DNA from: Promethearchaeota archaeon | GTDB taxonomy: Archaea > Asgardarchaeota > Lokiarchaeia > Sigyniarchaeales > SOKP01 | Direction of reading: 5' to 3' | Assembly (NCBI GenBank): GCA_030599585.1 | Contig: JAUVNS010000001.1 | Span: forward strand, 192,001-256,000 | Length of the DNA: 64,000 nucleotides | Part shown: one piece after another, positions 45,709-62,579 of the stretch | Layout: each line of letters begins with the position of its first letter | Numbering within the stretch: the stretch's first letter is position 1 | The notes under the pieces: generated by a model | Database searches by the model: none | What the model was told of the DNA's origin: nothing | The model's input: the letters and a program-made list of their open reading frames with translations, nothing else | Position numbers and translations under genes: made by a program

Positions 45709-46107
45709 ATGACCGAATTTTTGTTTGATTTTTTTGTCCTCGCTCAAGGAGGTAAAGTAATTTTCAGCCATTTTAATCTCTTAAAATGCGACGATCAGCT
45801 TATTGGAGCATATTTTCACGCAATCAATTCGCTATATAACGTTTGTTTCGATAGGGATATGCAAAAAGTTTCAATGAATAACTATCGACTTCATTTCACT
45901 AAAATTGAACCCTTCTTCTTTATAGGAATCTCACCTATGAGCCTTAAAAATAAGGCTGCAAACGAGCATTTTGAATCGTTAGCCCATTCTTTTTACGATA
46001 AATACTGCAATAAACTGCCTCAACATTGGGAGAGCAATGTAGCCTTGTTTAATGGTTTTAACTCCGGCATTGACAAACACGAAAAAGGAATTACTTTGCG
46101 TAGTTAA
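45709..46107 (+). CDS. Stand-alone longin-like domain protein
   Basis: FFVLAQGGKVIFS...DDQLIGAYFHAINS...F...Y pattern typical of Asgard longin-like proteins. Confidence 0.7.
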   Translation: MTEFLFDFFVLAQGGKVIFSHFNLLKCDDQLIGAYFHAINSLYNVCFDRDMQKVSMNNYRLHFTKIEPFFFIGISPMSLKNKAANEHFESLAHSFYDKYCNKLPQHWESNVALFNGFNSGIDKHEKGITLRS

Positions 46108-46224: not shown

Positions 46225-47091
46225 ATGTTCGTAAATCAAAAAATGAACACATGGACTCCAGCGTATTGGGAACACATTATTAGGAACATCGGACCCATTA
46301 CATTTGAAGAACAAGAACTAATCAGAACTTCACGCATCGCAGTACTCGGAGTAGGCGGTCTAGGCGGTCCACTCGCAGAGAATCTCGTCAGATCAGGCTG
46401 TCAAGACTTAGTGATTTGTGATTTTGATGTGTTCGACGAGTCAAATTTGAATCGGCAAATTTGCACTACTGAGGATCTTGGTAAGAGAAAAATTGATGTT
46501 GTAGAAGTTTTTTTACAGAAGATCGATTCTGAAATAAGCGTTAGGAAGTTTTTTAAAATAACTCAGCAAAACATTGATGAGGTCCTTAAGGATGTGAGAG
46601 TGATCGCGTTGACCTTAGACGATCCCGTCACCTCAATCTATATCGCTAGAGAAGCTCGAAAGCGGGGAATACCTATGATCGAGTCCTGGGGCGTACCATT
46701 CTTGTTTACTTGGTGGTTTACTCCCGAGAGCATAGATTACGAGAGATGTTACGGTCTTGAAACTGAGAAATTCAATTATTTCGAATTGTCTAATCTTAAA
46801 AAGGAAATTAACCTAGCCACTTATCAAGCATTGTTACCAAAAGTGTTTACGATGCCTGGAGTCAGAGAAAAATACGATAGAGAACCTGGAGCGTTCGAAG
46901 AAATGATGAAAGGTTCAATTGGTGCACGATCTTTTGCCCCCTTCGTGAGAATCACATCCGACTTACTGTCGGTAGATGTTATTTTCTCAGGTATTCTCGG
47001 AATAAAACCAAAACACTTAGCTCCTCACTTGAAAGGGTTCGACTACATCAACATGGAAGTCCAGGAAGCTAACCTAACAAATAATAACTAA
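46225..47091 (+). CDS. ThiF/E1-like adenylyltransferase
   Basis: GVGGLGG, DFDVFDESNLNRQ, GKRK; lacks the MoeB Zn CxxC motifs. Confidence 0.85.
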   Translation: MFVNQKMNTWTPAYWEHIIRNIGPITFEEQELIRTSRIAVLGVGGLGGPLAENLVRSGCQDLVICDFDVFDESNLNRQICTTEDLGKRKIDVVEVFLQKIDSEISVRKFFKITQQNIDEVLKDVRVIALTLDDPVTSIYIAREARKRGIPMIESWGVPFLFTWWFTPESIDYERCYGLETEKFNYFELSNLKKEINLATYQALLPKVFTMPGVREKYDREPGAFEEMMKGSIGARSFAPFVRITSDLLSVDVIFSGILGIKPKHLAPHLKGFDYINMEVQEANLTNNN

Positions 47092-47110: not shown

Positions 47111-47515
47111 TTATTTGTCTCTATTCAAACCTTCGTCCTCAACAGAAGCGTTATTCTTTCTTTTTAACACAAACCCATTAATTCTATCTGCTACTGTTTC
47201 TAGTAATTTGTTCTTCTCTAAAATTTCTTCCCTTAGTTGAGATTCCACTTTGGTGGGTGAAGAAGTTTGCTGTGTATTTCTTAGGATTTGCATTAGTTTT
47301 TTAGACCTCTTTTCCGCAAAGAAAAAGCCAAAATCCGTTATTTCTTCTACCATGCGACCTCGACATTGAAGTAACAAGTGCTTCAACTCTTTTCCACTGA
47401 TTTTTCCCTCCGTAAAATTTCTTATCGCAATCTTGAGCTCTTCTAATTCATCATCGTTGAAGATTATTTTTTCTACTACATGTTCAAAATTCGCTAACTC
47501 TTGACTTTTTTCCAT
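47111..47515 (-). CDS. Small helical protein, last gene of the membrane operon
   Basis: TAATG overlap with the stop of the 1257-aa gene. Confidence 0.7.
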   Translation of the reverse strand: MEKSQELANFEHVVEKIIFNDDELEELKIAIRNFTEGKISGKELKHLLLQCRGRMVEEITDFGFFFAEKRSKKLMQILRNTQQTSSPTKVESQLREEILEKNKLLETVADRINGFVLKRKNNASVEDEGLNRDK

Positions 47516-50500
47516 TAAATTCCCCCCAAATCACCCTCAATGTATTGTCTGAAACCATCGAATATTGTGGAATATATTTCGAAGATATCTTTACAGGTTT
47601 CGGCTACTTTGGCCTGATCGTTTACTTCTATCTTTTCACAAGAAGTTAAAAATTGCTTTAGATCATCCACTGTAAACGGAAACCCTTCGACTTTACCGAA
47701 ATTTTTTATAAATCTACTAATATCTTCTGAAGTTATTGCGTAATTCACGCTATAATATTCTTTGTAAACGCTGTGTAAAAATTTAGGGAATAAATCCCTA
47801 CCAGTCTTTATCACTTTCTCGTATTTTTTGTGGTTTAAGTTTTTGTGCATGGTAAAATATTCGTAATATAGAATAGGAGCAAAATTTTTAGAGAGGGCAC
47901 TTCTTAGATTAATAGGATTCAGCGCCTCTGCTGCAGAAGGTTGTGTAGATTCCAGTTCAACTGGTTCATATGTGATGATCGAACTATCTCGCGAATCGTA
48001 ATAGTCTTTTAAAACTCTTTGGTAATGAGGTCCGACCGCAAAGGATGTTTGCATGGACTCCGAACCGCTGGCTCTTCGGGGGTGAGTTTCTGTTAAATAT
48101 TGTTTGTTTACTAAAATCCCAAAAACTTTGTCAATAATTTCTTTCTCTCTCTTCTTTTCTTTTGTAATTTTTGCGATGTAAGGCTTCAACACTTCTTGCA
48201 GCTCTTCTCTCACTTTTTTTTTGTAGAGATTACCTACTTTATCAACCGCTTGGATATTATTTAAAAATTTAATAATGCCCTCTATCAAGTCACTATACCC
48301 GGCGAAATCGCTTTCGAATAGAGTAGTTTGAGCTCTTTTCATAATTTTTTTCTCAGTTTTTTCTAAATCGTAACCTTGATCTCCCATATATCTAACGATC
48401 TCTTGCCACGATAGAGGTTGAATTTGTTGTAATTCTTCGAAGTCAAGTTGCACGGGGAAGGATTGATATATATCCTCCCGTTTAACCACAGCCTCGTTTT
48501 GTTTCATCGCTCCGATGTATCTCGTCTGATATGCTTCATTCCTCCGACTGCTGTAGTAGCCGACTCCGTGTAGGTTCTCTAAATTCATCTGTCCGTTGAG
48601 TACCGCCACATCTTTTTTATCGGATGTTCGAAAAGTTACGATGTTATCGAAGTAATTAAACACGTTCGGGTGCAAATATCTTATTTGCGAGGCAGAACTT
48701 AAAGTTCCAAAACCTTTGTTAACAAATGGGGCAAAAAACTTATCGATCTTGCCGTATTGAATTTTCTTGTCTAAGAAAAAACCGTCAAAAACTATGTCGA
48801 TGTGTGGCAATACAAGAAATTTTGGAGTAAACGATTCTCCAGTCTTCAAATAATGAATCATTTTAGACAATACCACAAACATAAAATAGCACTGTTTGTC
48901 GTAATCTTTTACATCTGAAAGATCTATTATTACAGTTTTGTCGTCAGTGATGAACTCGTGCGCATGGGCAGATTCAAGATTCTGAGGTTGTTGGCGCTGG
49001 ATAAACGAAGACTCTTGGGGAGTGAACTCCTTAAAGAAGGATAGTAACGCTTCCGTGACAGAAGATTTCTCCCAGTCTCGTTGGGAAGTTAAGTCTAATA
49101 CAAGCGTAGAAATATCAATATCGGGATTTCGAAGTATTGTGTTTTTGAACATCTCAATGGTCCGTTCGTCCTTCTTAAAGCACATCGCATACGCGTCAAA
49201 CATGTAGTCTAAATAGGCAAGATTGTTTTTATCGTAGGGTATCTCTGATCGAAGTGGGTTGATCACGATAGTTTTGCCTAGTTTGTGGTAGATAAACTGA
49301 TTTTCGTAGATAGAACCTTGAAAAATTTTTATAACCTTAGACCAATTACCCGTAAAATCGAATACTACTGAAGGATAGCCCACTTTAACCAACTCTACCA
49401 CGATCTTTTGCGCAAGGAGCTCTCGGCTAGTGTTCGTGCCGTTAGTAACGAATAAATTCCGTACTTGCTCGATTAAAAATCCAGCGGGTACTTCTGTTTC
49501 TAAATATTCCGTATTAATAGTTGAGCCAACCGCAATCTCGTTTTTAAGCTGTAAGGGAGTGTTAAATTCTGCGGCTAACCGAGTTTCTACTCCTTTTTTG
49601 AATTGATCGGAAATCGTGGTCAAAAATTGTAAAGTTTTACCTTGATATAGCATATAATTAAGATGAGTACCGTTCCTTCTGAAAAATTTGTTTTTAAGCG
49701 CTTCGAATACTAATCCTGATTCCAATAGATTGTTCCGTAACGGTTTTATTCTAAAATTCAAAAAATTATTCCCAAAAGCAGATTTTAAAACTGCGAATTG
49801 CCGTACTAACCGCCTTTCAATCTCGTCCATCGTTTCAAGAGTGAGTGATGGCGAGTTAGAAACTACCGAAGTAGAATAAGTAGCAATAACGCTCCAGATA
49901 CCTGCTTTTTGTCTGAGCCAATTGTCACGTTGTACTGGATTGCTTCTGCGTTTCATTAAGTAAAATTTTTCTCGTTCATTTAAATATTCAAACCCTTCAG
50001 AGTCAAATTTTTCGAAGTTTAAGGGTCCTAACTGGAAGGTAACCGTAAAAGACATCCCTTCTTTATTTAGCGACTCGTAGAACTTACCGGGATTACAATA
50101 CGGTGGCGGGCTGCAAAAGTAGAGGTTTGCTATTTTAATCCCTCCCGTAGTTTTTCCTTCAATCTGGTAAAAAATGGTCTCTGGCGTTTTTCTCGACTTA
50201 AAAAACTCTATTCTGGTAAAAGGATCGATTACGTTAATCTCCTTAGATTTGAACAGTTTACTTTTTGACAACTGAAAGAACAATTCCTGCCACCACACAT
50301 TTATTAACAAAATAATTATTCCGCTATTGAGTAAAAACCTATAAATTAGAGGTAAGTTGAAAAATAATAGCGATAAATCTAATAAAACTACCAACGCTAC
50401 GATATAGCTCGCTTTTGTGATTGATGTGCTTAACTTAGGGCGCACGGTTTTACAAGTGATTCTTTTCGAATTGGGTTCTATTGGAACATCTCGTTTCAGA

Positions 50501-51288
50501 ACAGTGCTTCGAAACGCTTTTATTAATTGTTGATCGGTCAGGGATGATACATTAAAGTGGTGAAAATTTGACGAAAAACCAGTTTTTAAGGCAATAGTGT
50601 TTAGCCGAAGCTCTTCTACCAATTTAGTTAACTTCGATTTAGTTATTTTCCCGTGTATTTTATAATAGGTGGAAAACAAAATCACCGTCTCAAAAGTCGA
50701 GTTTTTGTCGTAAACTTTACTATCAGTTATCTGAAGCGGTTTGTGGACGACTTGAAAAGTATACGGAGTGCGATTTTTGTTTAATCCTTTGATAAAAGTA
50801 AGTAAATTTGCTGAAACATTTTCGGCCATGACTTCAACTTTTAAGGTACTAACGCCAGTAGTTATCATATCTCTGCGATTAGTATAATATAATACTGACT
50901 TATCGTAGTCGGTCTGCCAAAAAGTTAAATTTTGAAAGGGGTTAAACGCTCCAAATTCCAATAAGTGGCGCAAACCAAAGAAACTTTTCCGAAATACCAA
51001 TACGAAACTAACTCCAACTAATACGGTTGCGCTAATAGAGAGCATAATATTGACCGTCGTTAGCATTAGTGAAGCGAACAAGACAAACTCAATTACCACT
51101 AACGAGATCGCTTTTTTGAGCGTGTCGGTATTATCTATATCCTTATAAGAAGGAAAAGAGTTCCAGACGCTATAATATGGGTCCTCGTCTGTATTCTTAT
51201 CGTTTCTTTTCCCACTTTCGTTTTTTTCTTTCCAGTCCTTATTCTGATTATTATCTTTGTTCAAAAATTCTCCATATGATTTTACCAA
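47515..51288 (-). CDS. Membrane-anchored VirB4/HerA/FtsK-superfamily protein with degenerate ATPase motifs
   Basis: IAVG, NLFVTNGTNTSRE at Walker A position, VVFDFTGNW, INPL, VIIDLS, FLVLPHID at Walker B position, SASQ, FRTSDKKD; two N-terminal TM hairpins. Confidence 0.75.
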   Translation of the reverse strand: MVKSYGEFLNKDNNQNKDWKEKNESGKRNDKNTDEDPYYSVWNSFPSYKDIDNTDTLKKAISLVVIEFVLFASLMLTTVNIMLSISATVLVGVSFVLVFRKSFFGLRHLLEFGAFNPFQNLTFWQTDYDKSVLYYTNRRDMITTGVSTLKVEVMAENVSANLLTFIKGLNKNRTPYTFQVVHKPLQITDSKVYDKNSTFETVILFSTYYKIHGKITKSKLTKLVEELRLNTIALKTGFSSNFHHFNVSSLTDQQLIKAFRSTVLKRDVPIEPNSKRITCKTVRPKLSTSITKASYIVALVVLLDLSLLFFNLPLIYRFLLNSGIIILLINVWWQELFFQLSKSKLFKSKEINVIDPFTRIEFFKSRKTPETIFYQIEGKTTGGIKIANLYFCSPPPYCNPGKFYESLNKEGMSFTVTFQLGPLNFEKFDSEGFEYLNEREKFYLMKRRSNPVQRDNWLRQKAGIWSVIATYSTSVVSNSPSLTLETMDEIERRLVRQFAVLKSAFGNNFLNFRIKPLRNNLLESGLVFEALKNKFFRRNGTHLNYMLYQGKTLQFLTTISDQFKKGVETRLAAEFNTPLQLKNEIAVGSTINTEYLETEVPAGFLIEQVRNLFVTNGTNTSRELLAQKIVVELVKVGYPSVVFDFTGNWSKVIKIFQGSIYENQFIYHKLGKTIVINPLRSEIPYDKNNLAYLDYMFDAYAMCFKKDERTIEMFKNTILRNPDIDISTLVLDLTSQRDWEKSSVTEALLSFFKEFTPQESSFIQRQQPQNLESAHAHEFITDDKTVIIDLSDVKDYDKQCYFMFVVLSKMIHYLKTGESFTPKFLVLPHIDIVFDGFFLDKKIQYGKIDKFFAPFVNKGFGTLSSASQIRYLHPNVFNYFDNIVTFRTSDKKDVAVLNGQMNLENLHGVGYYSSRRNEAYQTRYIGAMKQNEAVVKREDIYQSFPVQLDFEELQQIQPLSWQEIVRYMGDQGYDLEKTEKKIMKRAQTTLFESDFAGYSDLIEGIIKFLNNIQAVDKVGNLYKKKVREELQEVLKPYIAKITKEKKREKEIIDKVFGILVNKQYLTETHPRRASGSESMQTSFAVGPHYQRVLKDYYDSRDSSIITYEPVELESTQPSAAEALNPINLRSALSKNFAPILYYEYFTMHKNLNHKKYEKVIKTGRDLFPKFLHSVYKEYYSVNYAITSEDISRFIKNFGKVEGFPFTVDDLKQFLTSCEKIEVNDQAKVAETCKDIFEIYSTIFDGFRQYIEGDLGGI

Positions 51289-51296
51289 ATTTTATT

Positions 51297-52151
51297 TCAC
51301 CTTTTTCCGTAATACAACTTGTTGATAAAAATTAAGACTACGATAACACCAAAACAAATAAGGGTGGTATTGCTAATAGACACCGATAAAACGCCATACA
51401 TAAAAGATTCTACTAAAAGTATCGCCCCTATCATAGCAAATAAAATAATTACGCTAAAGATCATTAGCTGACCAATATTTTCCTTTGATTGACGATACGA
51501 TATATTATCCTTTAAAGCCCCCGATATTGCAATCTTTCCTCTCGATTTTTGCTCCAAATTCTTCCTTACTGTTTTTAAGTGCAAAATCTTTTCGAAAGCG
51601 TTTTTATCGAATTGGTGGTCGAGTTGAATTTGAAGGGCCTTTTCCTCGTCTTTAATCCTTTGCATTAATATCGGATTAAGCGCATTGTCACTTTTTCTCC
51701 TTTTAGATTGGCCACCTGAAAGAAAAGAAAACATAGATACTGTACGATTTCGGTTTAACATTTCTGAGTTGATATTTTCGTGTAAGTTCGGAACTTCTAG
51801 TTTCCGAAGCTCGTAATACGCTTCAATTACGCTCTTCACCTGCTCAAGATTTATATCCCCTTGTCGTTTCAGAAACAAAAGCTCTATTTGAGACAAATAC
51901 TGTATCATTTCGGGCTTGAACACCGCTACATTGAAATTAAGGGCAAAAATTTTATTTACAAGTTCCATGTATTCAAAAATATTCTCGCCAGAATCCTTTT
52001 CCCTTGTTCGCATGCCTAATTTAATCCCTATTTCGCCAACTGCGTTGCTTACGAGTACAAAACTTACCACCGCTAGCTTTTTATAGTTGCCTGTTTCTTT
52101 GCAGAGTTGTATCAGTCGTTTTAGCTTTAAATCTAAAAGTTGCTTGCTCAC
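51297..52151 (-). CDS. Helical N-domain plus two C-terminal TM helices
   Basis: GTGA overlap with the upstream gene; two hydrophobic helices at the C-terminus. Confidence 0.7.
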   Translation of the reverse strand: MSKQLLDLKLKRLIQLCKETGNYKKLAVVSFVLVSNAVGEIGIKLGMRTREKDSGENIFEYMELVNKIFALNFNVAVFKPEMIQYLSQIELLFLKRQGDINLEQVKSVIEAYYELRKLEVPNLHENINSEMLNRNRTVSMFSFLSGGQSKRRKSDNALNPILMQRIKDEEKALQIQLDHQFDKNAFEKILHLKTVRKNLEQKSRGKIAISGALKDNISYRQSKENIGQLMIFSVIILFAMIGAILLVESFMYGVLSVSISNTTLICFGVIVVLIFINKLYYGKR

Positions 52152-52900
52152 TTTCGCCCCCTCGTAGATAAAAAATCCTCGTAAATTTGCTCTACTTCAT
52201 TTTTAGACTCATTTTTCTGCTTCCTTTGAGAGGATTCAATCTCCAATTCTTCTTGAGCGATTAATTTGTCTAAATCGAACGGTTCTTTCACATTTTCAAT
52301 GTATGATTTTACAACTTCTGCGGGAGCATATTTTGCCTTTTCGAAAGTATTTATTACCGATAAATTGAACAATGCATAAGGAAATGTACATCCAAAGGAA
52401 GCTACTTGAAACCAATATCCTGGACCAATCGAATAATAAAGCGTGAGGCTTAATTCGCTATCGTAATAAACCATAAAAGGATAATAAAGATCGTTTGGTA
52501 ATAAAAAAAACAACGGAAATATCAACACGAAAAATCCAATTAAAACAATTAACGAAAGCGTGATAAAATTAAACCTCTTTACTTTAAGCAGGTTGTCACC
52601 CTTTTCCAGATCGTGAAAAAGCGTTGAATAAGCTGAAAGGAAGACTGCAACGATAAGAACTATCACAATGACAACGGGCATAGTAGCATTTTGGGGTTTA
52701 TAAGATTCATTAAACTGGTTCCCTTCTGTAAATGGGGTGCTCCACCCGAACAAGGTGTTGTAAATCCACAACATTATAGGCTCTCCGCTGTTGTTAAGCA
52801 CACCCTCGAGGTAATACCAATCTAAAAACACCGACGCGAAGCTGAAGATAAGGCCTATTAAAAAAATGATTTTATATCCTGATTTTATATTTATCGACAT
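52148..52900 (-). CDS. 4-TM membrane protein (claudin-like topology)
   Basis: TM1-DWY...FGW loop; last TM preceded by GPGYWF. Confidence 0.7.
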   Translation of the reverse strand: MSINIKSGYKIIFLIGLIFSFASVFLDWYYLEGVLNNSGEPIMLWIYNTLFGWSTPFTEGNQFNESYKPQNATMPVVIVIVLIVAVFLSAYSTLFHDLEKGDNLLKVKRFNFITLSLIVLIGFFVLIFPLFFLLPNDLYYPFMVYYDSELSLTLYYSIGPGYWFQVASFGCTFPYALFNLSVINTFEKAKYAPAEVVKSYIENVKEPFDLDKLIAQEELEIESSQRKQKNESKNEVEQIYEDFLSTRGRK

Positions 52901-52969
52901 GTTACATTAAACTCTATTTGTTTTCACTTATGGAGCCTAAAATCGCCGTGAATTTATAAAGAAAAAAAA

Positions 52970-54781
52970 TTAGGAGTCATCTAAAAACGATGAATATTTG
53001 CTGTTGTATTTTGTTGTTAAATTACTAACGGATTCCCCTTTTGTTTGCTCAAGTTCAAACAAATTTTGGAATTCAGGCTCACTTCGTTTTTCTTCTACGT
53101 TGTGTTTTAATGTGTTTGCTTCACTTCGCTCAATTACTCCATACTTAGCATCTTTACTTAGACATTCGTACCCGAATTGAGTCAATAACTCGTCTGTGAG
53201 TTCTTCCTTAAAATCTAAAAAATCTATCTCGCTAAATTCCAATTTTTGTAAGTAGTAAGGTGTTTTGAATTGAGTAGCTAATCGCTTTTTAGTCCGGTAA
53301 AAATTGTAATAGAAAAAAGTTAATAAAGAGATGTAAATCCCTACAACAGCAAACCCGATGGTGTTAAGCAGTCGCAATAGGAAAAAAAGCTCTGCGAAAT
53401 AAATAACTAAAAGCGCCACTGAGTATCCGAAGATTGGAATTGAAGTATATCGAACTCTTGTACGAAGCGTCTCCTCCGCTAGTCTTAACCCTTTAACTGA
53501 GCTTGTCTTTTTCGTTCTCTTCTCGATCATCCGATATTTTTTTTCCAAGAACCTGACCAAAGGAGCTAATTCGGCTCTGGTAACGGCGTGAAGATTAGTG
53601 CTTTTTTGGTATGGGAAGGTGAGCGTTTTTTCCATGCTTCTGGGAGGGTTATAGCATAACAAGATAGGTTCGATAAACACCTTGTATTGAGTAGTTCCCG
53701 AAAGAAATATCACACTTTTGTTTCCGAACCCTTTTTCTAAGGAAAGGCTAATTTGTAAATATTTTTGGAAAAATGTGAGAATACCTTGGTTAGTTGCTAT
53801 ATCTTTATACATCGAATCTCTGACTTGCAATAAACTTTTAGCAATTTGCTCTATATCGCAATAAGCTCCAAGATCAGTTTTGCTCGAATGCGACTTTAAT
53901 TCTATCTTACTCTCGTCAACTAACACCGTTCCTTCATGATCGAACCGTTTCACAGGAAACAGGAACAGAATTCTAAGGTCGTCCGAAGCTTTCACTAACT
54001 TACACCCGAGGTAATCAAGGCCAGTAGTAAATTGTTTTAACGATTCTAACGAGCTAGGGATTTCGTAGCACCCAGCATCCTTAAAAGAGTCGGCAATTTG
54101 TTGGTGTACGATACTCTCGAAAGTTCTATCTCTAGGATATTCGAAATTGATATTCGTTGGTTCTGCTGGAGTAGAATCAAAGTTTTCTTCTTCTATTGTG
54201 TTTTTTTGTTCAAGTTGCTCCCGTTCTATTTGAATTTCAGGAATAATTTCTTGTGAAGATTCTTCTTCTTCCTCCTCAACAGTATTGCTAGAGTTATTAA
54301 CCCTTTTTGATATTGGGGTGTATGACGCTGTCAATCTCGAATAATTGTATTTATCGGATAACCATTTTGGATCAGTTTGCGACTGGTCGAACTCTTCTTC
54401 CCCTTCTGTTTTGGGTTCTTCACTGGTTTCTTGGGCCTCATCTACGATTACTTGTTCAACTTCGTATTGTTTGATAGGGATTGGTGTAAATTCAACCTTT
54501 GTTTCCCTTTGAATTTGAGTAGATTCGCTTACAAAATCTTCTTTTTGAGAACTTTCCAAATGATTTTTAGCTGCCGTAATAAATTTCGTAGCAGTCACTA
54601 ACCCAATTCCAGGAGTTTCTGAAAGCTTTTCTGGTGTCATCTCAGCGATCTGTCTAACTGATACGATTTTTGCGTTGTATAATTTTTCTGCTGTGGTAGA
54701 GCCAATCCCTTTAATCTCGGTTAGATTATCACGGGAAAGCTCGCTAATTTTTTGTTCTTGGGTTCCATATACATCTGTCAT
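52970..54781 (-). CDS. Helix-hairpin-helix DNA-binding membrane protein
   Basis: LTEIKGIGSTTAEKL and LSETPGIGLVTATK tandem HhH, acidic linker, globular domain, 2 TM. Confidence 0.8.
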   Translation of the reverse strand: MTDVYGTQEQKISELSRDNLTEIKGIGSTTAEKLYNAKIVSVRQIAEMTPEKLSETPGIGLVTATKFITAAKNHLESSQKEDFVSESTQIQRETKVEFTPIPIKQYEVEQVIVDEAQETSEEPKTEGEEEFDQSQTDPKWLSDKYNYSRLTASYTPISKRVNNSSNTVEEEEEESSQEIIPEIQIEREQLEQKNTIEEENFDSTPAEPTNINFEYPRDRTFESIVHQQIADSFKDAGCYEIPSSLESLKQFTTGLDYLGCKLVKASDDLRILFLFPVKRFDHEGTVLVDESKIELKSHSSKTDLGAYCDIEQIAKSLLQVRDSMYKDIATNQGILTFFQKYLQISLSLEKGFGNKSVIFLSGTTQYKVFIEPILLCYNPPRSMEKTLTFPYQKSTNLHAVTRAELAPLVRFLEKKYRMIEKRTKKTSSVKGLRLAEETLRTRVRYTSIPIFGYSVALLVIYFAELFFLLRLLNTIGFAVVGIYISLLTFFYYNFYRTKKRLATQFKTPYYLQKLEFSEIDFLDFKEELTDELLTQFGYECLSKDAKYGVIERSEANTLKHNVEEKRSEPEFQNLFELEQTKGESVSNLTTKYNSKYSSFLDDS

Positions 54782-55035
54782 GAGAATCTATTCTTATGAA
54801 AAGTCGTCTGTATTTAAAGAAAAAATCGCTTCTCATTTCATAAATGCTTTCAAATAAGCCAATCGAATGTGAAATTATCTTTATTTCTATTGATGAAGGT
54901 AGTGAACTATTGAATTATTTTGTCTTTGTGTTAGATTTATTTTCTTTTTGTTTTTTCCTTTAAATTTGCTCTATTTCAAATGCTATTACAACAATGTGAT
55001 TACAATAATAACTTTTTTAAAAACAATCGCAAACT

Positions 55036-57570
55036 ATGTCCCTTACTAACTACACCAACTCAAAGAAATCGCAAGTCGAAGAAGGAATTGAGGAGGAAAT
55101 ATTTGAGTACGTTCAAGACGAACGCATCCTTCGAGTATTGTTCGAGCAAAAGATATTCAAACTTCGGCAAATTCAGAGAGAGGCGATCCAAAAGGGATTA
55201 TTCTTTCGAAAGTCGTTCCTAGTATGTGCGCCTTCGGGGAGCGGTAAAACTCTAGTAGGAGAAATTAGTGCCGTAAACAACGTGTTTCAAAAGTTCGGTA
55301 AGTCAATATATTTAGTTCCCTATAAAGCTCTTGCCACCGAAAAATACATCCATTTCAAAAAGAGTTACGAGCGGTTTGGAATTACAACCGAGCTGTCAAT
55401 AGGAGATTACGACGTAGACGATTCCCGATTAGCTAAAGCAAATATTATTGTAACCACTTACGAGAAAATGGATTCAATTTTGCGAAATTTTAGCGAAAAA
55501 GAATGGATTTTCGATATTTCGACTATTATCATTGACGAAATTCACATTTTAGGAGAATCAAGCGGTTCTCGAGGTCCAAGGTTAGAGTCTCTAATAGTTC
55601 GGTTAAACGAGTTCTTACACCAACCGCAACTAATCGGACTTTCAGCTACCATAAAAAATCCTGAATTCTTTAATGACTGGCTTTCTTCACTCGGAAACAA
55701 TAACACGCTAATTTTTTCCGATACCAGGCCTGTTCCTTTACATTATAGAATAGAAATTACTCAAAATAAAAATTCCACTATTAAGAAAATAATGAGGACG
55801 ACTTTAAATGATAGAGGGCAGGTTTTAGTATTCCTAAATCGAAGGAAAGCCACTCAACAAACCGCACAGAACCTTAAAAATTTAGTGAAAACGCAACTAA
55901 CTGAAAACGAGTTAAAAGCGTGTAAAAAGGTAGAAGAGAAGCTCAACAAAATAAAAGGAAGAAACACTGAGTTAAAGAAAGCAGTTAAATGTGGAGTAGC
56001 GTTTCATCACGCTGGACTGCTCCCAAAAGAACGTAAACTTGTAGAAGACGCCTATCGAAAACATATAATCAAGGTAATATGTTGTACTACTACCTTAAGT
56101 GCCGGTGTTAATGTCCCCGCTCGAGTAGTCATCGTAAAAGATTTCAAACGATATGTGACTTCAGGCCACAACATTAAAAACTTTTCTGGATACTATGAGA
56201 ACGGAGACGGATTTTCATACTTTATGCCGTTTTCTGCCAATTCCGTTTTTCAAATGCTCGGTCGAGCAGGAAGACCGGGGCTTGATTCAGAAGGTTTTGG
56301 CTATATACTTGCTAGTAATGTCGATGAACGGGATTGGATCGAAGATCATTACTTCCAGAACGCCGTTCCAGTAGGAGTTTATATTCCTAAATACAATAAT
56401 TTAACTTCTGGACTCAATAAACTTAACACTTTGAAAGAGCAAGTGCTTTTGCGGATTTACGAGGAGAAAAATATCACCTTAGAAAAATTAAAAGAATTCT
56501 TCCAAAAAACTTATTTTTGGTACGGTATCAAACAAAACAAAACAAAAAATCGACAGATTCCCATTGATCAGCTTTTGATGATTAAAGAAATTACCCCTAT
56601 TAACATCTTGAAACTGCACTCCGACCCGAAAAAAGTAGAAAGGTTATCGAATAATCACCACCAGATTAAAATAACAAAGTTGACGAAGTCAAATGTATCG
56701 GGCTACATAAAAACGGATTTTGGAGTATTCTTTGCGGAATTCGATATCGATGTTGGGATACGATGCTCGTGTGGGTTTGAAAACGGGATATCTAACAATT
56801 ACTCAGACGATCAATTCTCTTTCGAATTTTGTGACCACATCACTGCACTTTTACTACACCTAATCGGGATTCCCGACCAGAACTTCCAAAAATATGTCCA
56901 GGACATAGTTCCTAAATCGGTAAAAAATCAATATGTTCTCAATTACTTGTTCGAAAAAGGGTTAATCATTAAACGGGACGATAACACCATAAAATGCTCG
57001 CAGTTCGGAAAACTCATTATCCGATTGTATCTATACCCCGTTTCAGGAGTCTTAATACGATATAAACTCGAAAATGCTTCGATTGAGACCTATCAAGATG
57101 TCGTAAAAGAAGCCTACGAGGTGCTCAAAGCGGAATTAAAAGTACGAAACTACAAAATGCTTCAACCCCTCTTGGAGTGGTGCGACGAAGAGTCAATTGA
57201 CGACATTTTGGAGAGACACAAGATAATGGCAGGCGATCTTTATACCACTAAGGACAACTTAGAACGAATTATTACTTTTATTGGGATTATCGCAGTTCAT
57301 TTAAGCGAGTCTGATCCAGACATAGCTGAGGCTATGGTTAAAGTAGCTGAAATGTCCGAAACGCTTAAAATTCGAGTGCATTACGGAATTAGCGAAGAAT
57401 TATTTGATTTGGTCTTAAGATTAGACAATGTGGCAAGAGCGAGAGCGAGGATATTGTATAACGCAGGATATCATACTGCTACTAAGGTAAAAAAAGAAAA
57501 TCCTTATGTACTTAATCGAAAAACGGGATTAGGGATAAAACTCTGCAAAAAGATTGTTGGGAAGAATTAA
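55036..57570 (+). CDS. Ski2/Hel308-like SF2 helicase with inserted SWIM zinc finger
   Basis: APSGSGKT, TYEK, DEIH, SAT, HHAGL, LSAGVNVPA, QMLGRAGRPG; CSC-x19-CDH; C-terminal HLH. Confidence 0.9.
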   Translation: MSLTNYTNSKKSQVEEGIEEEIFEYVQDERILRVLFEQKIFKLRQIQREAIQKGLFFRKSFLVCAPSGSGKTLVGEISAVNNVFQKFGKSIYLVPYKALATEKYIHFKKSYERFGITTELSIGDYDVDDSRLAKANIIVTTYEKMDSILRNFSEKEWIFDISTIIIDEIHILGESSGSRGPRLESLIVRLNEFLHQPQLIGLSATIKNPEFFNDWLSSLGNNNTLIFSDTRPVPLHYRIEITQNKNSTIKKIMRTTLNDRGQVLVFLNRRKATQQTAQNLKNLVKTQLTENELKACKKVEEKLNKIKGRNTELKKAVKCGVAFHHAGLLPKERKLVEDAYRKHIIKVICCTTTLSAGVNVPARVVIVKDFKRYVTSGHNIKNFSGYYENGDGFSYFMPFSANSVFQMLGRAGRPGLDSEGFGYILASNVDERDWIEDHYFQNAVPVGVYIPKYNNLTSGLNKLNTLKEQVLLRIYEEKNITLEKLKEFFQKTYFWYGIKQNKTKNRQIPIDQLLMIKEITPINILKLHSDPKKVERLSNNHHQIKITKLTKSNVSGYIKTDFGVFFAEFDIDVGIRCSCGFENGISNNYSDDQFSFEFCDHITALLLHLIGIPDQNFQKYVQDIVPKSVKNQYVLNYLFEKGLIIKRDDNTIKCSQFGKLIIRLYLYPVSGVLIRYKLENASIETYQDVVKEAYEVLKAELKVRNYKMLQPLLEWCDEESIDDILERHKIMAGDLYTTKDNLERIITFIGIIAVHLSESDPDIAEAMVKVAEMSETLKIRVHYGISEELFDLVLRLDNVARARARILYNAGYHTATKVKKENPYVLNRKTGLGIKLCKKIVGKN

Positions 57571-57592: not shown

Positions 57593-58693
57593 TCATTTTT
57601 TATTACCAGCAATATAGAGATTACAACACCCAATATTACATATTGGCATAAATTTATTTTTTTCCATATAAGCTCGAAATTTAGTATACTTTTCTCCATA
57701 CCAAATTTCATCAAAGCTATTTTCCTTAAGATTGCCTAAAACAAAATCGTGATATATATGACAAGGGGCAACATCTCCAGAGGCAGTGATTTCAGTCCCG
57801 ATCCATGGAATTGAACATCCATCATATAGATCAGTCATGTTTTGCCAATCTGCTTTCAAATATGCAGAAAGATTTTCAGGGGAATAGGTAGGGGGTTGTA
57901 AAAAATTGGTAATATTGCGTTTTTTTAACTCCTCACATACTTTATTTACCTGATCAGAAACAACAGGCACATCTATATCTTTAAAATTATCAGTATTTCG
58001 AACAAAACCATTCCATTTATTTTCACTATAGATTTCAAACTCTGTATTAAGGAAATTCTCAAATTTCAGTCCCATTTCTTCAGTGATAAAATTCTGCATT
58101 TCAATTTCAACATGATTAAGAGATTCGAGATTCAAATCGGGATTATTTAGAAAAAAATCTTCCATTGATTGATAGTTATTTTTAGTTATAGTGAACAATA
58201 TCGCAATACGGGGTGTTTTGCTTCCTAATTTCTGCTTTTCTTCATGGAGTTCATTGATTCCGTTTATGGCTCTTTCATAACTACCTTTACCCCGCTGATA
58301 ATCGTTAATATCCTTGGTTCCATCGAGAGATACGCGAACTTGGTCAAATCCTGTCCGAACGAGCATCTGCGCTTGATCAGCCAGAAAAGTGCCATTTGTA
58401 GGAGTGTCTACAACTGCCTTAGCAGCCTTTATTTCAAGAATTAGTTCTTCCAAATCGGGATAATTAAGTGGCTCTCCTCCAAATAAAGAATACCATGGTT
58501 TTGGTCTTGAAGTAGCTAATTCTTTAATTAATCCTTTAAGTATGTCAATATCAAGTACTTTTGGTTTATTTCCATGTTTAATATACGCACCGGATTCTCC
58601 CCAGAAATAACACATTTTACATCGAAGATTACACGCTTCTGTTATGTGCAATATAACGCTTTTTGGGTATCTTAATTTTTTTACAGGACACAT
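57593..58693 (-). CDS. Radical SAM protein with SPASM/twitch domain
   Basis: CNLRCKMC, GGEPL, TNG, SLDG, C..PW...GDVAPC, LGNL, ICNIGCC. Confidence 0.9.
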   Translation of the reverse strand: MCPVKKLRYPKSVILHITEACNLRCKMCYFWGESGAYIKHGNKPKVLDIDILKGLIKELATSRPKPWYSLFGGEPLNYPDLEELILEIKAAKAVVDTPTNGTFLADQAQMLVRTGFDQVRVSLDGTKDINDYQRGKGSYERAINGINELHEEKQKLGSKTPRIAILFTITKNNYQSMEDFFLNNPDLNLESLNHVEIEMQNFITEEMGLKFENFLNTEFEIYSENKWNGFVRNTDNFKDIDVPVVSDQVNKVCEELKKRNITNFLQPPTYSPENLSAYLKADWQNMTDLYDGCSIPWIGTEITASGDVAPCHIYHDFVLGNLKENSFDEIWYGEKYTKFRAYMEKNKFMPICNIGCCNLYIAGNKK

Positions 58694-58838: not shown

Positions 58839-59120
58839 ATGGATTCTGATTCCGAAAACGATCCATTCGACCTGAACTTCTCAAAAAAAGTAAGGATTAA
58901 AGAATTCTTAGTCTTTATGGAATCTGAGGAAGATCAAGACTATTATGTAATTAAAAAGTTCGAAAATACAAAAGAACAAAACTTAGAAACTCTTGAGTTT
59001 ATTCAAAAAATCATAAAAAGCGACCCAGAGATAAACTCCGACCGGGTTAAGGGATATTTAAAGCGCCAACGCTTGTTCATAAAACTCTATTTAAAAGAAG
59101 TAAACAAAGATCAAGGTTAG
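58839..59120 (+). CDS. Hypothetical protein
   Basis: 93-aa ORF leading a + strand cluster. Confidence 0.55.
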   Translation: MDSDSENDPFDLNFSKKVRIKEFLVFMESEEDQDYYVIKKFENTKEQNLETLEFIQKIIKSDPEINSDRVKGYLKRQRLFIKLYLKEVNKDQG

Positions 59121-59170: not shown

Positions 59171-59443
59171 GTGAGTGATGAGAGTATGGAAGTTTCTAAA
59201 AAAGAAAAACACGATCCAGTAGTTATAAGAATTATGGACTACGATAACCTCGAAGATGTGTTATCGAAAATTATTATCCCTTTCTCTGAAGTAATGAAGG
59301 ATTCACATGTTCCAGATGTATACACAGGATACGAGAAAATACCGTTTGAGAAGCGATATCCTCTCTATCAAATCATTATGAGACAAGAGTTTGCGGACGC
59401 GATGATAGTAATAAAAAACGGCATCTCAACAGAAGCTAAATAA
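59171..59443 (+). CDS. Small protein, IIPF/DIYxG family (member 4)
   Basis: SKIIIPFSE...PDVYTGYEKIPFEKRYPLYQIIMRQEF. Confidence 0.7.
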   Translation: MSDESMEVSKKEKHDPVVIRIMDYDNLEDVLSKIIIPFSEVMKDSHVPDVYTGYEKIPFEKRYPLYQIIMRQEFADAMIVIKNGISTEAK

Positions 59444-59810: not shown

Positions 59811-60323
59811 TTATCGTGAATAGTAGTAGTAGTCATCTTTCTTGATCACCATCCCACTTTTTTTAGCGTTTCTAATTAGGGTTTTTAATTCTATCGCAGG
59901 AATTCCATAATCTTCAGACATGATTTCGAGCATATACTTCGGAAACCGCTTGTAAAGTTTTGAAAGCTCAAACAACATCTCGGTAAACTTTTGCTTGTAA
60001 TCATTTTCTTGATTTTTGTTTTTCAAATCGTTTTTCCTGATTTTAGGTCTAACAACACTATGAGTAGCAACAACAAAATCGTTTCTCGAACGAAATTCCG
60101 GCGTTGCTAACTCGTTCTGTTTTCTTTTTACGGTATTCAAAGCTTCCGTCATGCCAGATACTACTTCACCTTTTTTCAATATATCTTGCACTTGGTGTTT
60201 TCTACCACATCTCAGACACTTTTTGGTCTTTTGAACGGTTTTTACATAGAAAAATCCCCCACACTTTTTGCATGCGAAGATTAGATATGGAGTTTCGTCT
60301 CTTTTAATCGTTAAATCTTCCAT
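59811..60323 (-). CDS. DUF1922-like zinc-ribbon protein with C-terminal wHTH
   Basis: YLIFACKKCG..Y....KTKKCLRCG; starts 3 nt after the hef stop. Confidence 0.7.
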   Translation of the reverse strand: MEDLTIKRDETPYLIFACKKCGGFFYVKTVQKTKKCLRCGRKHQVQDILKKGEVVSGMTEALNTVKRKQNELATPEFRSRNDFVVATHSVVRPKIRKNDLKNKNQENDYKQKFTEMLFELSKLYKRFPKYMLEIMSEDYGIPAIELKTLIRNAKKSGMVIKKDDYYYYSR

Positions 60324-60326
60324 TGA

Positions 60327-62579
60327 TTACAAAACACCTTCGTTTTTTACGTGTAGATAAATATTTTTTAGAATAAAATATAATTCTTCCGAAAGATCGA
60401 TGTTAATAGCTTGGAGTTTATTGTCATCACCCCAATCGGAGAACTTTTTCTTGAGTAACTTCTCTTCGTTGTCAAATTCTTGTTTAAAGTCTACAAAGTC
60501 GAAAACTGAGACGATAAGGTTATATTTTTTACTTAACAGAATATATTTTTTAAGAAGAGTATCTCCGTCAAATCCTCGAGGATCAATTATTTGGACCAAA
60601 ACTTTATCGAACAGGGTTAAATCAAGGATTGACTTTACGATTTCAAACGAAAACCCATCTTTATGAAATTTTTTCCTCAAACCAAATTTAACAGGGAAGG
60701 ATACGTTTATTTTGATGTCAGATTTAATTTTTTTTGGTTTGGGAGCGATCGATTTGCCCTGGGAAAAAGCGCTTAAACTCGATTGAATTTCTCTTTTATT
60801 ACGTACTTTGCTAATTTTTTTATTATTGTCAATGTTAACTTTTTTCTCGGAGGTAATTATTTTTTCCAACGGCCTCTCAATATATGAGAACTTAGGTTCA
60901 TTTTTTTCTACTTGAATATTTTTAAGTTCTTTAATTCTCGGTATATTTTGAGGCATCTTATTGGAATAGACTGTGTGTAGCTGTTTTTCGCCTTTCAAGT
61001 TCACATTCATCTTCTTGAGTTTAGTTAGGGCGATATGCATATATATTTCGTCGTGAGTGCCTTTACAATAAAGGATAATTACTTTTCCTTCGCGATGGCG
61101 AGCAGTCCTCCCTTTTCTCTGAATAAACCGAATTTCAGAAGCTACTACGTCGTAAAACACCACAAGATCGCACTCAGCGATATCCAACCCCTCCTCTCCT
61201 ACATTGGTGCTAACTAAAACATTGTATTGACCTCGTTTAAACTGCTCTAAAATCTCTAACTGTTGCTTCTGCGACATCCCCTTATCGTCTTGAGATTTTG
61301 TAGATTGACCCACAAATCGAGATGGTTTAATAGCGTTATTTTCGCTTGCTTTTAACTTGTGTACGATATTTTTAACTGAGTCGCGCAACTTTACGAACAC
61401 CAGTACACGAGAGCCAGGATTGTTTTCAAATTCTTGAATCAACAATGATTCGAGCGTGTAATATTTGGGATGGATGAGCTTTTGAGGAGAAAAATCTTCG
61501 TTCTTTTTCAGTTCAATAAATATTTGGTTTAGTCTGTGATCTCTGGCCAGAACTTTTAAGGCTTTAGAACTGGTTTTCTTGCGAGCCTTGGCTTTCATTT
61601 TGGTTAGGTAGATCAAAAGTACATCTAAACCTTGCTGTTCAATTAATTCAAGCATATGAAACAAAATTAACCCTTGAGCGTTTATGGAAAGCGCACTGTA
61701 GACCCCTGTTTTGTCTCCGTCGCTATTGACTAATCTAGTTAGTTCTCCGTTTAACTTTAATAAATCTTTTCGAATAATTTTAGTATGCAATTTTTCTGAC
61801 TTTGAATTTAGGAAGTTTAGCTGAGAAAGATATTGTAAGCGCACCTCCAAAAGAATTTGAACCGCATAGTATGCGTCGGCCATAAGTTCGGTTAAATTAA
61901 CGCCTATCTTATGTACATCCATTGGTTTTAGGTAATTTTTCACGTCTTCGTCTTTTCGAGTGCGAGTATGGATGTTCTCTAACGGAACATATAAATTTTC
62001 ACAAAGAGTCCTAATTTTTTCTTTGGAAGCACCTGGACTGGCCGTCAAACCTAAGATTACCCCATCCGGATTTTGTTCTACAAACTTATCTGCGATTAAT
62101 GTATAAGCGTAATCTTTGCTGGCGTGATGGGCCTCATCAAATATTACTAGACACGTGTGTTCTAAGGAATATTTTAAGTTCACCAAATCATTTCTTAAGG
62201 TTTGAGGCGTGTAAAATATTATCTGGTGGGTTTCGAACAGCTCCACTCTACTATCTGCAGGAGTTTTTCCCGTCAACACAACGAACTCATTTTCCGGAAT
62301 AGACATTAAATTTACAAATGATTCGTAATGCTGATTTATCAACGGTCTTGTAGGCGCTAACACGATAATTTTACTTTTCTCTGGGAATTTTTCTAAGGTA
62401 AGCGCTGCCACGAAGACGCCAATAATAGTTTTTCCCAGACCTGTAGGGAGGACGACTAGCGAATTTTTTGAAGCACAAGCTCTAGCTATTTTTAATTGGT
62501 AATCTCTTTTCTCGATGGATTTTTCTTTCAAGTAAGCGTTATTAATCATCGTTCTACCTTCTCTCTCGCTTTCGATCAC
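60327..62579 (-). CDS. hef: Hef/FANCM/Mph1-type SF2 helicase with degenerate C-terminal ERCC4-like domain
   Basis: RDYQ, LPTGLGKT, PTRPL, TPQ, DEAHH, TASPG, RFVGQ, EEGLDI, IQRKGRTAR. Confidence 0.88.
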   Translation of the reverse strand: MIESEREGRTMINNAYLKEKSIEKRDYQLKIARACASKNSLVVLPTGLGKTIIGVFVAALTLEKFPEKSKIIVLAPTRPLINQHYESFVNLMSIPENEFVVLTGKTPADSRVELFETHQIIFYTPQTLRNDLVNLKYSLEHTCLVIFDEAHHASKDYAYTLIADKFVEQNPDGVILGLTASPGASKEKIRTLCENLYVPLENIHTRTRKDEDVKNYLKPMDVHKIGVNLTELMADAYYAVQILLEVRLQYLSQLNFLNSKSEKLHTKIIRKDLLKLNGELTRLVNSDGDKTGVYSALSINAQGLILFHMLELIEQQGLDVLLIYLTKMKAKARKKTSSKALKVLARDHRLNQIFIELKKNEDFSPQKLIHPKYYTLESLLIQEFENNPGSRVLVFVKLRDSVKNIVHKLKASENNAIKPSRFVGQSTKSQDDKGMSQKQQLEILEQFKRGQYNVLVSTNVGEEGLDIAECDLVVFYDVVASEIRFIQRKGRTARHREGKVIILYCKGTHDEIYMHIALTKLKKMNVNLKGEKQLHTVYSNKMPQNIPRIKELKNIQVEKNEPKFSYIERPLEKIITSEKKVNIDNNKKISKVRNKREIQSSLSAFSQGKSIAPKPKKIKSDIKINVSFPVKFGLRKKFHKDGFSFEIVKSILDLTLFDKVLVQIIDPRGFDGDTLLKKYILLSKKYNLIVSVFDFVDFKQEFDNEEKLLKKKFSDWGDDNKLQAINIDLSEELYFILKNIYLHVKNEGVL

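Follow-up and report, generated by a model that had tools for sequence, protein, structure and literature searches.

A membrane-associated operon with a putative HerA/VirB4-fold pseudo-ATPase and its pairing with a SWIM-Hel308 helicase in Asgard archaea

Results and discussion

Organization of the locus

The window analysed here, a 64,000-nt stretch of Promethearchaeota archaeon assembly GCA_030599585.1 (G000; contig JAUVNS010000001.1, called C20 below, positions 192,001-256,000), contains a five-gene operon and a divergently oriented gene for a Hel308-like helicase. The largest product of the operon, a protein of 1257 amino acids (aa), is a putative membrane-anchored pseudo-ATPase. The genes are located in the window as follows (TM, transmembrane; HhH, helix-hairpin-helix).

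52970-54781, minus strand: gene 1, 603 aa, membrane-tethered HhH protein
52148-52900, minus strand: gene 2, 250 aa, about four TM segments
51297-52151, minus strand: gene 3, 284 aa, GTG start codon, helical N-terminal domain and C-terminal TM hairpin
47515-51288, minus strand: gene 4, 1257 aa, TTG start codon, putative membrane-anchored pseudo-ATPase
47111-47515, minus strand: gene 5, 134 aa, helical, adaptor-like
54782-55035: divergent intergenic spacer between gene 1 and the helicase gene, 254 bp, presumed site of both promoters
55036-57570, plus strand: SWIM-Hel308 helicase gene, 844 aa

Along the operon, the genes are separated by a 69-bp gap, a 4-bp overlap, an 8-bp gap and a 1-bp overlap. 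These values, calculated from the coordinates of the open reading frames (ORFs), match in every case the co-orientation, couplings and divergent spacer described in a first-pass annotation, which was made from the DNA sequence alone. The block had also been described there as rich in G+C and CpG, and this was found to be so to a modest extent. Its GC content was 0.363, compared with 0.326 for the genome (95th percentile of equal-sized windows), and its observed-to-expected CpG ratio was 1.26 (93.5th percentile); the block is thus not an outlier. No description of the gene 4 family or of the five-gene operon was found in full-text searches of the literature.

The 1257-aa protein

The gene 4 protein had no match in Pfam, NCBIfam or the PDB in single-sequence and profile searches. 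More than 130 full-length homologues of about 1260 aa, with identity down to 33% and all labelled 'hypothetical', were found in Lokiarchaeota/Promethearchaeota-labelled and related metagenome-assembled genomes. ESM feature matches fell into DUF87/HerA_C/TrwB clusters (0.90-0.91). A structure model of residues 345-1010 was built from 37 homologues (predicted local distance difference test score, pLDDT, 79), and Foldseek searches with this model returned TrwK/VirB4 and HerA at E ~1e-13, with full-length TrwK/VirB4 as the top match (E 1.3e-13). The following parts of the protein were delimited.

50434-51120, minus strand: module 1, first TM hairpin and alpha/beta domain, residues ~57-285
49609-50421, minus strand: module 2, second TM hairpin and alpha/beta domain, residues ~290-560, equivalent to the separate 250-350-aa protein of the split forms described below
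48373-49593, minus strand: HerA/VirB4/TrwB-fold P-loop domain, residues 566-972 (model residues 222-628), delimited with VIA-align
49420-49443, minus strand: degenerate P-loop NGTNTSRE, residues 616-623, located in alignments of 37 fused forms and of 23 fused and split forms
48004-48291, minus strand: winged-helix domain, residues ~1000-1095, aligned with the C-terminal winged helix-turn-helix (wHTH) domain of split forms (HTH_34 and DUF4423_like matches)

Comparison of the P-loop domain with solved structures by VIA-align gave the following values (rmsd, root-mean-square deviation).

HerA 4d2i: Z 23.8, rmsd 4.3 A, 317 residues aligned
VirB4 C-terminal domain 4ag6: Z 23.4, rmsd 4.1 A, 328 residues aligned
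DndH-C 7es4: Z 23.4, rmsd 4.1 A, 327 residues aligned
TrwB 1e9s: Z 20.9, rmsd 4.0 A, 336 residues aligned
FtsK 6t8o: Z 14.7, rmsd 3.8 A, 218 residues aligned

The core is accordingly modelled as a member of the FtsK-HerA superfamily fold, and the VirB4/HerA-like fold that had been proposed for the large protein was confirmed by structure prediction, Foldseek and VIA-align alike. Because the scores of HerA, VirB4, DndH and TrwB tie, the fold does not tell the branches of the superfamily apart and does not show descent from a type IV secretion system (T4SS). Full-length TrwK could be aligned loosely with model residues 5-629 (Z 16.3-17.6, rmsd ~8 A), that is, over the preceding N-terminal domain as well. 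The HerA alignments started at model residue 224, and the N-terminal domain was not matched to the HAS barrel.

The ATPase motifs of this core were found to be degenerate, although they stand in the order typical of the superfamily. In the P-loop, only G617 and R622 were invariant among the 37 fused and the 23 fused and split sequences, and arginine stands where lysine is expected. The Walker A motif GxxGxGK[ST] was missing, with no GK[ST] in any relative examined, and distant split forms keep the Gly...Arg pattern at this site (GGSHKERT and GESEPRRRT). The Walker B motif hhhhD[DE] was not recognized either: fused forms read hhhPxhDhhF, in which a single invariant aspartate (D831) remains of the acid pair, and conservation of this column does not extend from the fused to the split forms. 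Lacking the Lys-Ser/Thr of Walker A as well as the acid pair of Walker B, the gene 4 protein is unlikely to be a motor, and judging from its motifs it would be ATP-dead. The homologues define a new protein family, for which the description Arg-P-loop HerA-like pseudo-ATPases is proposed.

The first-pass annotation had proposed a domesticated T4SS-derived membrane complex that imports, exchanges or tethers DNA and passes it to recombination or repair helicases. In the version considered here, the locus would be a domesticated T4SS-derived translocon like Ced or Ted, with the VirB4-like protein powering DNA import or export through a channel formed by its partner membrane proteins. It is favoured by the top rank of full-length TrwK/VirB4 and by its loose alignment over the N-terminal domain, and the TM hairpin ahead of the VirB4-like body recalls VirB3-VirB4 fusions. 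Ced of Sulfolobales and Ted of Thermoproteales are DNA-import systems that represent domesticated T4SSs, and Ted loci, too, adjoin HerA and Rad50 genes (PMC9905601). Like Ced and Ted, the present operon is a chromosomal archaeal set that combines a membrane-bound VirB4/HerA-fold protein with small membrane proteins and is associated with homologous-recombination genes. Unlike in CedB, TedB and VirB4, the P-loop and Walker B motif are degenerate in every relative examined. No VirB6/CedA-like channel and no pilin-like (VirB2/CedA1-like) partner was detected with Pfam on the operon and PDB profiles of genes 2 and 3, the sole polytopic partner having about four TM segments versus six or seven in CedA, and very little of the operon proteins is predicted to protrude from the cell. 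Instead, the set includes its own SWIM-Hel308 and a membrane protein with an HhH domain, and no sequence similarity to Ced or Ted components was found. HerA, DndH and TrwB score the same as VirB4. A T4SS-derived motor is the least supported part of the earlier reading, and a translocon of this type is considered distinctly unlikely.

The N-terminal half of the protein contains two TM hairpins, at residues ~60-105 and ~295-335 according to hydropathy. A profile of module 2 matched residues ~113-188 (E 4e-4) and ~199-267 (E 7e-5), and did likewise in the other two copies of the protein in the assembly, so that this half appears to have arisen by internal duplication. The winged helix is followed by a family-specific C-terminal domain that extends up to residue 1257. 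From the charges flanking the hairpins, every large domain is predicted to be cytoplasmic. FtsK/SpoIIIE translocases have the same domain order, with TM segments at the N-terminus, a ring-type P-loop domain (FtsK-HerA superfamily) and a winged helix at the C-terminus. The gene 4 protein differs from these in lacking Walker A and B motifs and any FtsK_SpoIIIE match in Pfam, and in its winged helix, whose predicted role is helicase binding and not the reading of DNA.

A likeness to HerA hexamers that act with effectors (HerA-NurA in end resection, Sir2-HerA and DUF4297-HerA in defence) is seen in the best fold score, obtained with HerA 4d2i, and in the nuclease-bearing downstream partner of some copies. 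In contrast to those complexes, the gene 4 protein is anchored in the membrane by its two predicted hairpins and has no recognizable HAS barrel, ATPase motifs, or NurA, Sir2 or DUF4297 partner; no NurA family was found by Pfam in the five-gene operon.

A distant full-length homologue of 1295 aa (locus L006, 1-13888) was encountered without the three membrane genes before it. It faces genes for an AAA_23 (Rad50/SMC-like) protein and an AAA ATPase.

The linked helicase

In Pfam, the 844-aa helicase matched DEAD, Helicase_C and Helicase_dom4_arc. Among NCBIfam models it was nearest to Hel308, which bears out the Hel308-like assignment made earlier, with E 2.5e-122 and 409.6 bits on PRK02362 (cut-off 887) and 326 bits on helicase_Hel308 (cut-off 1200). 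Despite its Ski2-like core and domain 4, it therefore lies far under the curated cut-offs for a canonical Hel308/Hjm. A distinguishing insert was recognized in this protein.

56764-56838, plus strand: SWIM-type zinc finger CxC-x19-CxH, helicase residues 577-601

This CxC..CxH insert was present in all linked helicases checked (including those of loci L001, L003, L004, L017, L020, L023, L036 and L039) except a 608-aa reading from family f8 (L025), and the four zinc ligands were invariant across families in the helicase alignment. It was found in neither of the two canonical Hel308s checked, one from a Thorarchaeote (L042) and one from the genome studied here (C35:38603-41284). In the Thorarchaeote, the canonical Hel308 scored 822 bits on PRK02362 versus 352 for the copy located in the operon described below. 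A profile of the Thorarchaeota operon helicase gave 480 bits with the window helicase versus 227 with the next helicase of the same genome. The linked helicases thus appear, from these sequence comparisons, to be a distinct Hel308 paralogue subfamily that spans Asgard lineages, and they define what is termed SWIM-Hel308 here.

Distribution of the family and pairing with the helicase

A profile of the pseudo-ATPase and winged-helix domains matched 3179 proteins at E <=1e-3 among 1.8 billion representatives, and the named ones were all Asgard-labelled. Three architectures were distinguished, of ~1260 aa, ~750-920 aa and ~500-545 aa. In split forms, a 250-350-aa protein with one TM hairpin and an alpha/beta module is accompanied by a separate 480-540-aa protein with the pseudo-ATPase and winged-helix domains. 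The simpler forms (split or ~785 aa) occurred in at least 13 Asgard families, almost always beside SWIM-Hel308.

At E <=1e-20, the family was present in 75 of 200 sampled genomes of the phylum. Presence amounted to 29/40 in the window's family, 24/43 in Thorarchaeota and 6/6 in family f19. In at least 18 genomes of the window's family, the family gene and a Hel308-like gene were on one contig, within ~10 kb and mostly divergent. In at least 21 Thorarchaeota genomes, the helicase gene was directly downstream of the family gene, in the same direction and with overlapping stop and start codons. Linkage of the two genes was also observed in families f19, f12, f15, f9, f8 and f26.

The presence and absence of the two genes are compared below.

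Window's family (40 genomes): both genes in 24, neither in 10, only one in 6
Asgard families: both genes in eight (helicase E <=1e-36), neither in eleven

At least one of the six single-gene genomes is a contig-end artefact, and two of the genomes with neither gene show fragments at contig ends. The SWIM-Hel308 marker was found in 40/43 Thorarchaeota. The tie to a Hel308-like helicase, which the first-pass annotation could draw only from the divergent arrangement in the window, is therefore much stronger and wider than the window alone indicates, resting as it does on linkage and on presence and absence across families.

In family f19 (L016 5223-11947; L017 5368-12045), the split pair follows genes for a RadA paralogue, an ~885-aa M28-peptidase-like protein and a 150-aa membrane protein. 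SWIM-Hel308 is located ~8 kb upstream of the pair in this family.

Predicted contact between the winged helix and SWIM-Hel308

A complex of the 736-aa Thorarchaeota helicase with the C-terminal 195 residues of its family-protein partner was modelled. The model scored 0.67, and the best of three controls scored 0.00. The mark applied to such scores was reached by 58 of 80 solved complexes and by 2 of 110 mismatched pairs, counts that hold only roughly here, own alignments having been used. Three runs shared at least 85% of contacts, and the pLDDT of the partner was at least 67. In the modelled interface, the winged helix (residues 710-769) contacts two stretches of the helicase, 503-533 and 567-650, on either side of the SWIM finger (538-553). 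The model thus supports docking of the winged helix on SWIM-Hel308, a predicted contact that can be tested at the bench. We know of no solved complex of this kind.

A contact of comparable design is that of PINA with Hjm (Hel308a) in Sulfolobus, where a hexameric ring protein binds a Hel308-family helicase via its C-terminal domain (PMC6061704). Both cases combine a ring-fold protein with a Hel308-family helicase through a C-terminal domain, the contact being a predicted one here. PINA, however, is unrelated in sequence, contains PIN and KH domains and works as a soluble, active ATPase, whereas the gene 4 protein is predicted to be membrane-bound and ATP-dead by its motifs, and its helicase is a SWIM-bearing paralogue.

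Accessory proteins

Gene 1 encodes an HHH_5 domain at residues 19-72 (Pfam E 7e-11, with agreement of NCBIfam), and more than 120 homologues carry this domain.

54566-54727, minus strand: (HhH)2 domain of gene 1, residues 19-72, predicted to be cytoplasmic and DNA-binding

The top fold matches of this domain were the N-terminal domains of RadA/Rad51 (30-36% identity, rmsd ~1 A). In the structure model (pLDDT 70), an acidic, disordered linker of ~140 residues connects it to an alpha/beta domain spanning 221-422. Next come a long helical TM hairpin at 428-506, which corresponds to the two TM segments seen by hydropathy, and a helical C-terminal domain. No convincing fold match was obtained for the alpha/beta domain, and feature and shape searches of the ESM Atlas gave no usable match. 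It was considered whether gene 1 encodes a RadA paralogue with a decayed RecA core. This was rejected, as the middle domain does not have the alternating alpha/beta RecA fold and only the HhH part matches RadA.

Since Lys/Arg-rich stretches flank the TM hairpin at both ends and neither a signal peptide nor an N-terminal anchor was seen in the sequence, the HhH domain and both termini of the gene 1 protein are probably cytoplasmic. The suggestion that this protein is an outer DNA receptor similar to ComEA is thereby disfavoured, the flanking charges placing the HhH domain inside. The logic of bacterial competence, with its HhH receptor ComEA, ComEC channel, ComFA helicase of superfamily 2 (SF2) and RecA/DprA, is resembled by the combination of an HhH binder, membrane proteins, an SF2 helicase at the inner face and a recombinase. 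Unlike in competence, the HhH domain is predicted to face the cytoplasm, a ComEC-like channel is missing, and homology is limited to generic domains.

Hydropathy analysis of the gene 2 protein indicated three clear and a probable fourth TM segment, one outward loop with N-glycosylation sequons and a charged C-terminal tail. The gene 3 protein has a helical, predicted cytoplasmic N-terminal domain of ~225 aa and two C-terminal TM segments. This is the sole C-terminal hairpin among the partners; a small two-TM protein is absent from the operon. Neither protein had a match in Pfam, NCBIfam or PDB profiles. Orthologues at the same position were found for gene 2 in loci L001, L003, L004, L005 and L014 and for gene 3 in all related loci. 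Pfam and hydropathy results thus bear out the earlier description of these products as HhH plus two TM, four TM (the fourth being probable), helical plus two TM, and small helical proteins.

The small helical protein encoded by gene 5, for which Pfam and NCBIfam gave no match, has an N-terminal module of ~125 aa that is retained across relatives, while its C-terminus varies. The window protein is 57% identical to the N-terminus of the 297-aa protein of another copy of the region, on contig C12. It has no C-terminal addition, whereas ~170 unrelated residues follow in the C12 copy and in a further one on contig C49. In L003 (13806-14642), the gene 5 homologue is fused to an NYN/Zc3h12a-like ribonuclease domain (E 1.8e-10). 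Because the same module is joined to C-termini that vary among copies, it may be an adaptor that carries different effectors in different copies.

HerA/VirB4-fold proteins also work in protein secretion, and four of the five operon proteins are of unknown function. Both points would suit a role outside DNA metabolism, such as protein export or membrane remodelling, in which case the linkage to the helicase might reflect RNA or other substrates. The HhH and wHTH domains and the linkage to Hel308 and to RadA, XPD-like and FEN1-like paralogues in many lineages weigh against such a role, which is regarded as highly improbable.

Recombination genes in Thorarchaeota and Lokiarchaeia

In ten Thorarchaeota loci, the pair of family gene and SWIM-Hel308 was found in a tightly packed operon of ~15 genes, whose order is as follows.

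Start: two unknown genes, RadA paralogue, two unknown genes, XPD/Rad3-like helicase
Middle: 2-TM protein, ~100-aa protein, ~785-aa family protein, SWIM-Hel308
End: ~500-aa 2-TM protein, KaiC/RadB-like ATPase, 4-5-TM protein, RadB-like protein, FEN1/XPG-like nuclease

Three membrane proteins are thus encoded besides the pair. In the genomes checked, the recombination genes of this operon were extra divergent copies, and the canonical RadA and Hel308 were located elsewhere and had far higher scores. In the Lokiarchaeial genome studied here, a RadA paralogue, a FEN1-like gene and a trio of genes lie 15-29 kb beyond the helicase, outside the window.

The RadA paralogue (L093 15934-17082; C20:270934-272082) carries HHH_5 at its C-terminus (residues 324-372) and not at its N-terminus, and equivalents are present on contigs C12 and C49. 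The trio (L093 6885-8719; C20:261885-263719) encodes a 4-6-TM protein, a 117-aa protein and a 237-aa KaiC/AAA_25-like ATPase and is found in all three copies of the region. It recalls the segment of the Thorarchaeota operon with a membrane protein and a RadB-like protein.

These genes bear on the possibility that the module is a housekeeping tether of chromosome and membrane, or an FtsK-like segregation or repair platform, that serves the cell's own chromosome only. The FtsK-parallel architecture and the cytoplasmic orientation predicted for the DNA-binding domains agree with this, and ring ATPase PINA binds Hel308/Hjm in the processing of forks and junctions (PMC6061704). A housekeeping role is at odds with the apparent absence of the module from many Asgard families and from a quarter of the window's own family, with the nature of the linked repair genes as extra divergent paralogues beside canonical copies, and with the motifs of gene 4, which predict no motor activity to move DNA. 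It is considered very unlikely.

Conservation and copies of the operon

The order of the five genes was kept in loci L001, L003, L004 and L005, where the large protein has 33-39% identity, and in two further copies in the assembly. In three of these four distant loci (L001, L003 and L004), a divergent gene for an 828-846-aa helicase is followed, as in the window, by small ORFs and by genes for a DUF1922 protein and a Hef-like helicase. Synteny thus shows co-conservation of the five genes across one Lokiarchaeial family. The statement of the first-pass annotation that no relaxase, integrase or pilin is visible held as well: no relaxase, integrase, pilin or capsid family was found with Pfam and NCBIfam in the genes scanned at 40-64 kb of the window, and no tRNA gene was found in the window. 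Because the same flanking genes are present across genera and integrase, relaxase, capsid and tRNA genes are lacking, the operon does not lie inside a provirus or an integrative and conjugative element; it is chromosomal and syntenic across genera.

The whole region is present three times in the assembly, on contigs C20, C12 and C49, each time with its own helicase. The three blocks (C20:236-283 kb, C12:20-64 kb and C49:8-53 kb; loci L014, L015, L093 and L094) are collinear over more than 40 kb with 75-88% protein identity. The GC content was 0.362 for C12 and 0.350 for C49, compared with 0.326 for the genome. The three copies may be co-binned relatives rather than paralogues, the contamination estimate of the assembly being 8.9%. 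Other, cleaner genomes hold two or three diverged copies.

In the C49 copy (L015 14184-16378), the 4-TM gene is split into ORFs of 130 and 177 aa. A 427-aa ORF on the opposite strand, with about seven TM segments and no Pfam match, is located between the split gene and the HhH gene.

The pattern of copies raises the question of membrane-sited defence, in which a pseudo-HerA scaffold with a helicase and exchangeable nucleases would intercept phage or plasmid DNA in the manner of HerA-Sir2, HerA-DUF4297, Hachiman (with its Hel308-like HamB helicase) or Zorya. Consistent with defence, the distribution of the operon is patchy inside a single genus and family and some genomes hold it several times, gene 5 has a variable C-terminal effector that includes an NYN nuclease, the GC content of the block is slightly unusual for the genome, and HamB models align with the core of the helicase (E 1e-45). 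However, this HamB match covers the generic core only, and no PADLOC model (PADLOC-DB 2.0) matches the five operon proteins except LmuA on the small one, at chance level (E 0.0045). SWIM-Hel308 is near-universal in Thorarchaeota, the gene order is fixed, and the recombinase paralogues are atypical of defence systems. Furthermore, the operon is surrounded not by a defence island but by housekeeping genes, among them those for ThiF, a pyridoxal phosphate (PLP) enzyme and a radical S-adenosylmethionine (SAM) enzyme. A defence system is therefore regarded as unlikely.

Proposed function

The explanation preferred here, which is given a somewhat better than even chance, is that the operon and helicase are the Lokiarchaeial form of an Asgard-wide membrane module, in which a pseudo-ATPase platform recruits a dedicated helicase for DNA exchange or recombination. 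The 1257-aa protein would be the hub. Two helical hairpins would anchor it in the membrane, its large domains would all be cytoplasmic, and its HerA/VirB4-type ring fold would serve as a platform, not as a motor. Its C-terminal winged helix would recruit SWIM-Hel308, which would supply the DNA-translocating activity. The HhH protein may hold DNA at the cytoplasmic side of the membrane, the 4-TM and 2-TM proteins would make up the rest of the membrane part, and the fifth, small protein would be an adaptor that bears a nuclease in other copies. The module would process DNA at the membrane and deliver it to a recombination set of its own, consisting of RadA, RadB-like and FEN1-like paralogues.

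As regards the setting in which such a module would operate, DNA exchange or uptake appears the most likely, as both the recombinase paralogues and the resemblance to Ted loci agree with it; DNA import is possible. A more specific proposal is that the module is a DNA-exchange apparatus of Asgard archaea, helicase-driven and with neither a pilus nor a T4SS, which would move DNA over the membrane, or along it, and deliver it for recombination to a private RadA/RadB/FEN1 set. In this full form the proposal is put forward tentatively and is rather doubtful. To our knowledge, no route of DNA exchange or uptake has been described in Asgard archaea, Ced/Ted systems and conjugation included.

Several observations weigh against the platform explanation. 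The contact between the winged helix and the helicase was modelled on a Thorarchaeota pair and not on the proteins of the window, and a passing score is not proof of binding. The invariant arginine in the P-loop of gene 4 could still bind nucleotide. The RadA and FEN1-like paralogues are located 21-29 kb from the helicase in the genome studied here, a looser link than in Thorarchaeota, and no homology between the Lokiarchaeial and Thorarchaeota accessory proteins was detected (hhalign probabilities <=1.7), although the alignments were shallow and homology is possible. Finally, a quarter of the genomes of the window's own family gave no sign of the module, and some genomes have several copies; this patchiness and multiplicity would suit an accessory role such as defence as well as DNA exchange.

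The module offers a concrete and testable candidate for the handling of DNA at the membrane in many lineages of the Asgard archaea, from which eukaryotes arose. It would represent an apparently inactivated ring protein of the secretion/HerA type that is tied to a private helicase and, in Thorarchaeota, also to a private recombinase set. The anatomy of the five-gene Lokiarchaeial form, the table of its presence and absence together with SWIM-Hel308, and the predicted contact between winged helix and helicase are new here.

Neighbouring genes

Further genes near the operon and the helicase are listed below; membership of the first three entries in the module is uncertain, and these three were also located beside the helicase in L001, L003 and L004.

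58839-59120 and 59171-59443, plus strand: two small ORFs
59811-60323, minus strand: DUF1922 protein
60327-62579, minus strand: Hef-like helicase
42590-43411: CoiA_nuc-domain gene (E 2.8e-12), with one paralogue elsewhere in the genome (contig C34)

The Hef-like and CoiA-like neighbours to which the first-pass annotation had drawn attention are both real genes. The CoiA-like gene was rejected as a conserved part of the system: it was near the operon in no related locus, and its position in the window is incidental.

A radical SAM/SPASM gene (57593-58693) lies between the helicase gene and the conserved small ORFs, and no gene is found at that place in L001, L003 and L004. On the other side of the operon, a 132-aa ORF (45709-46107) with a weak longin-domain match (Fuz_longin_1, E 0.002) adjoins the ThiF-family gene (46225-47091).

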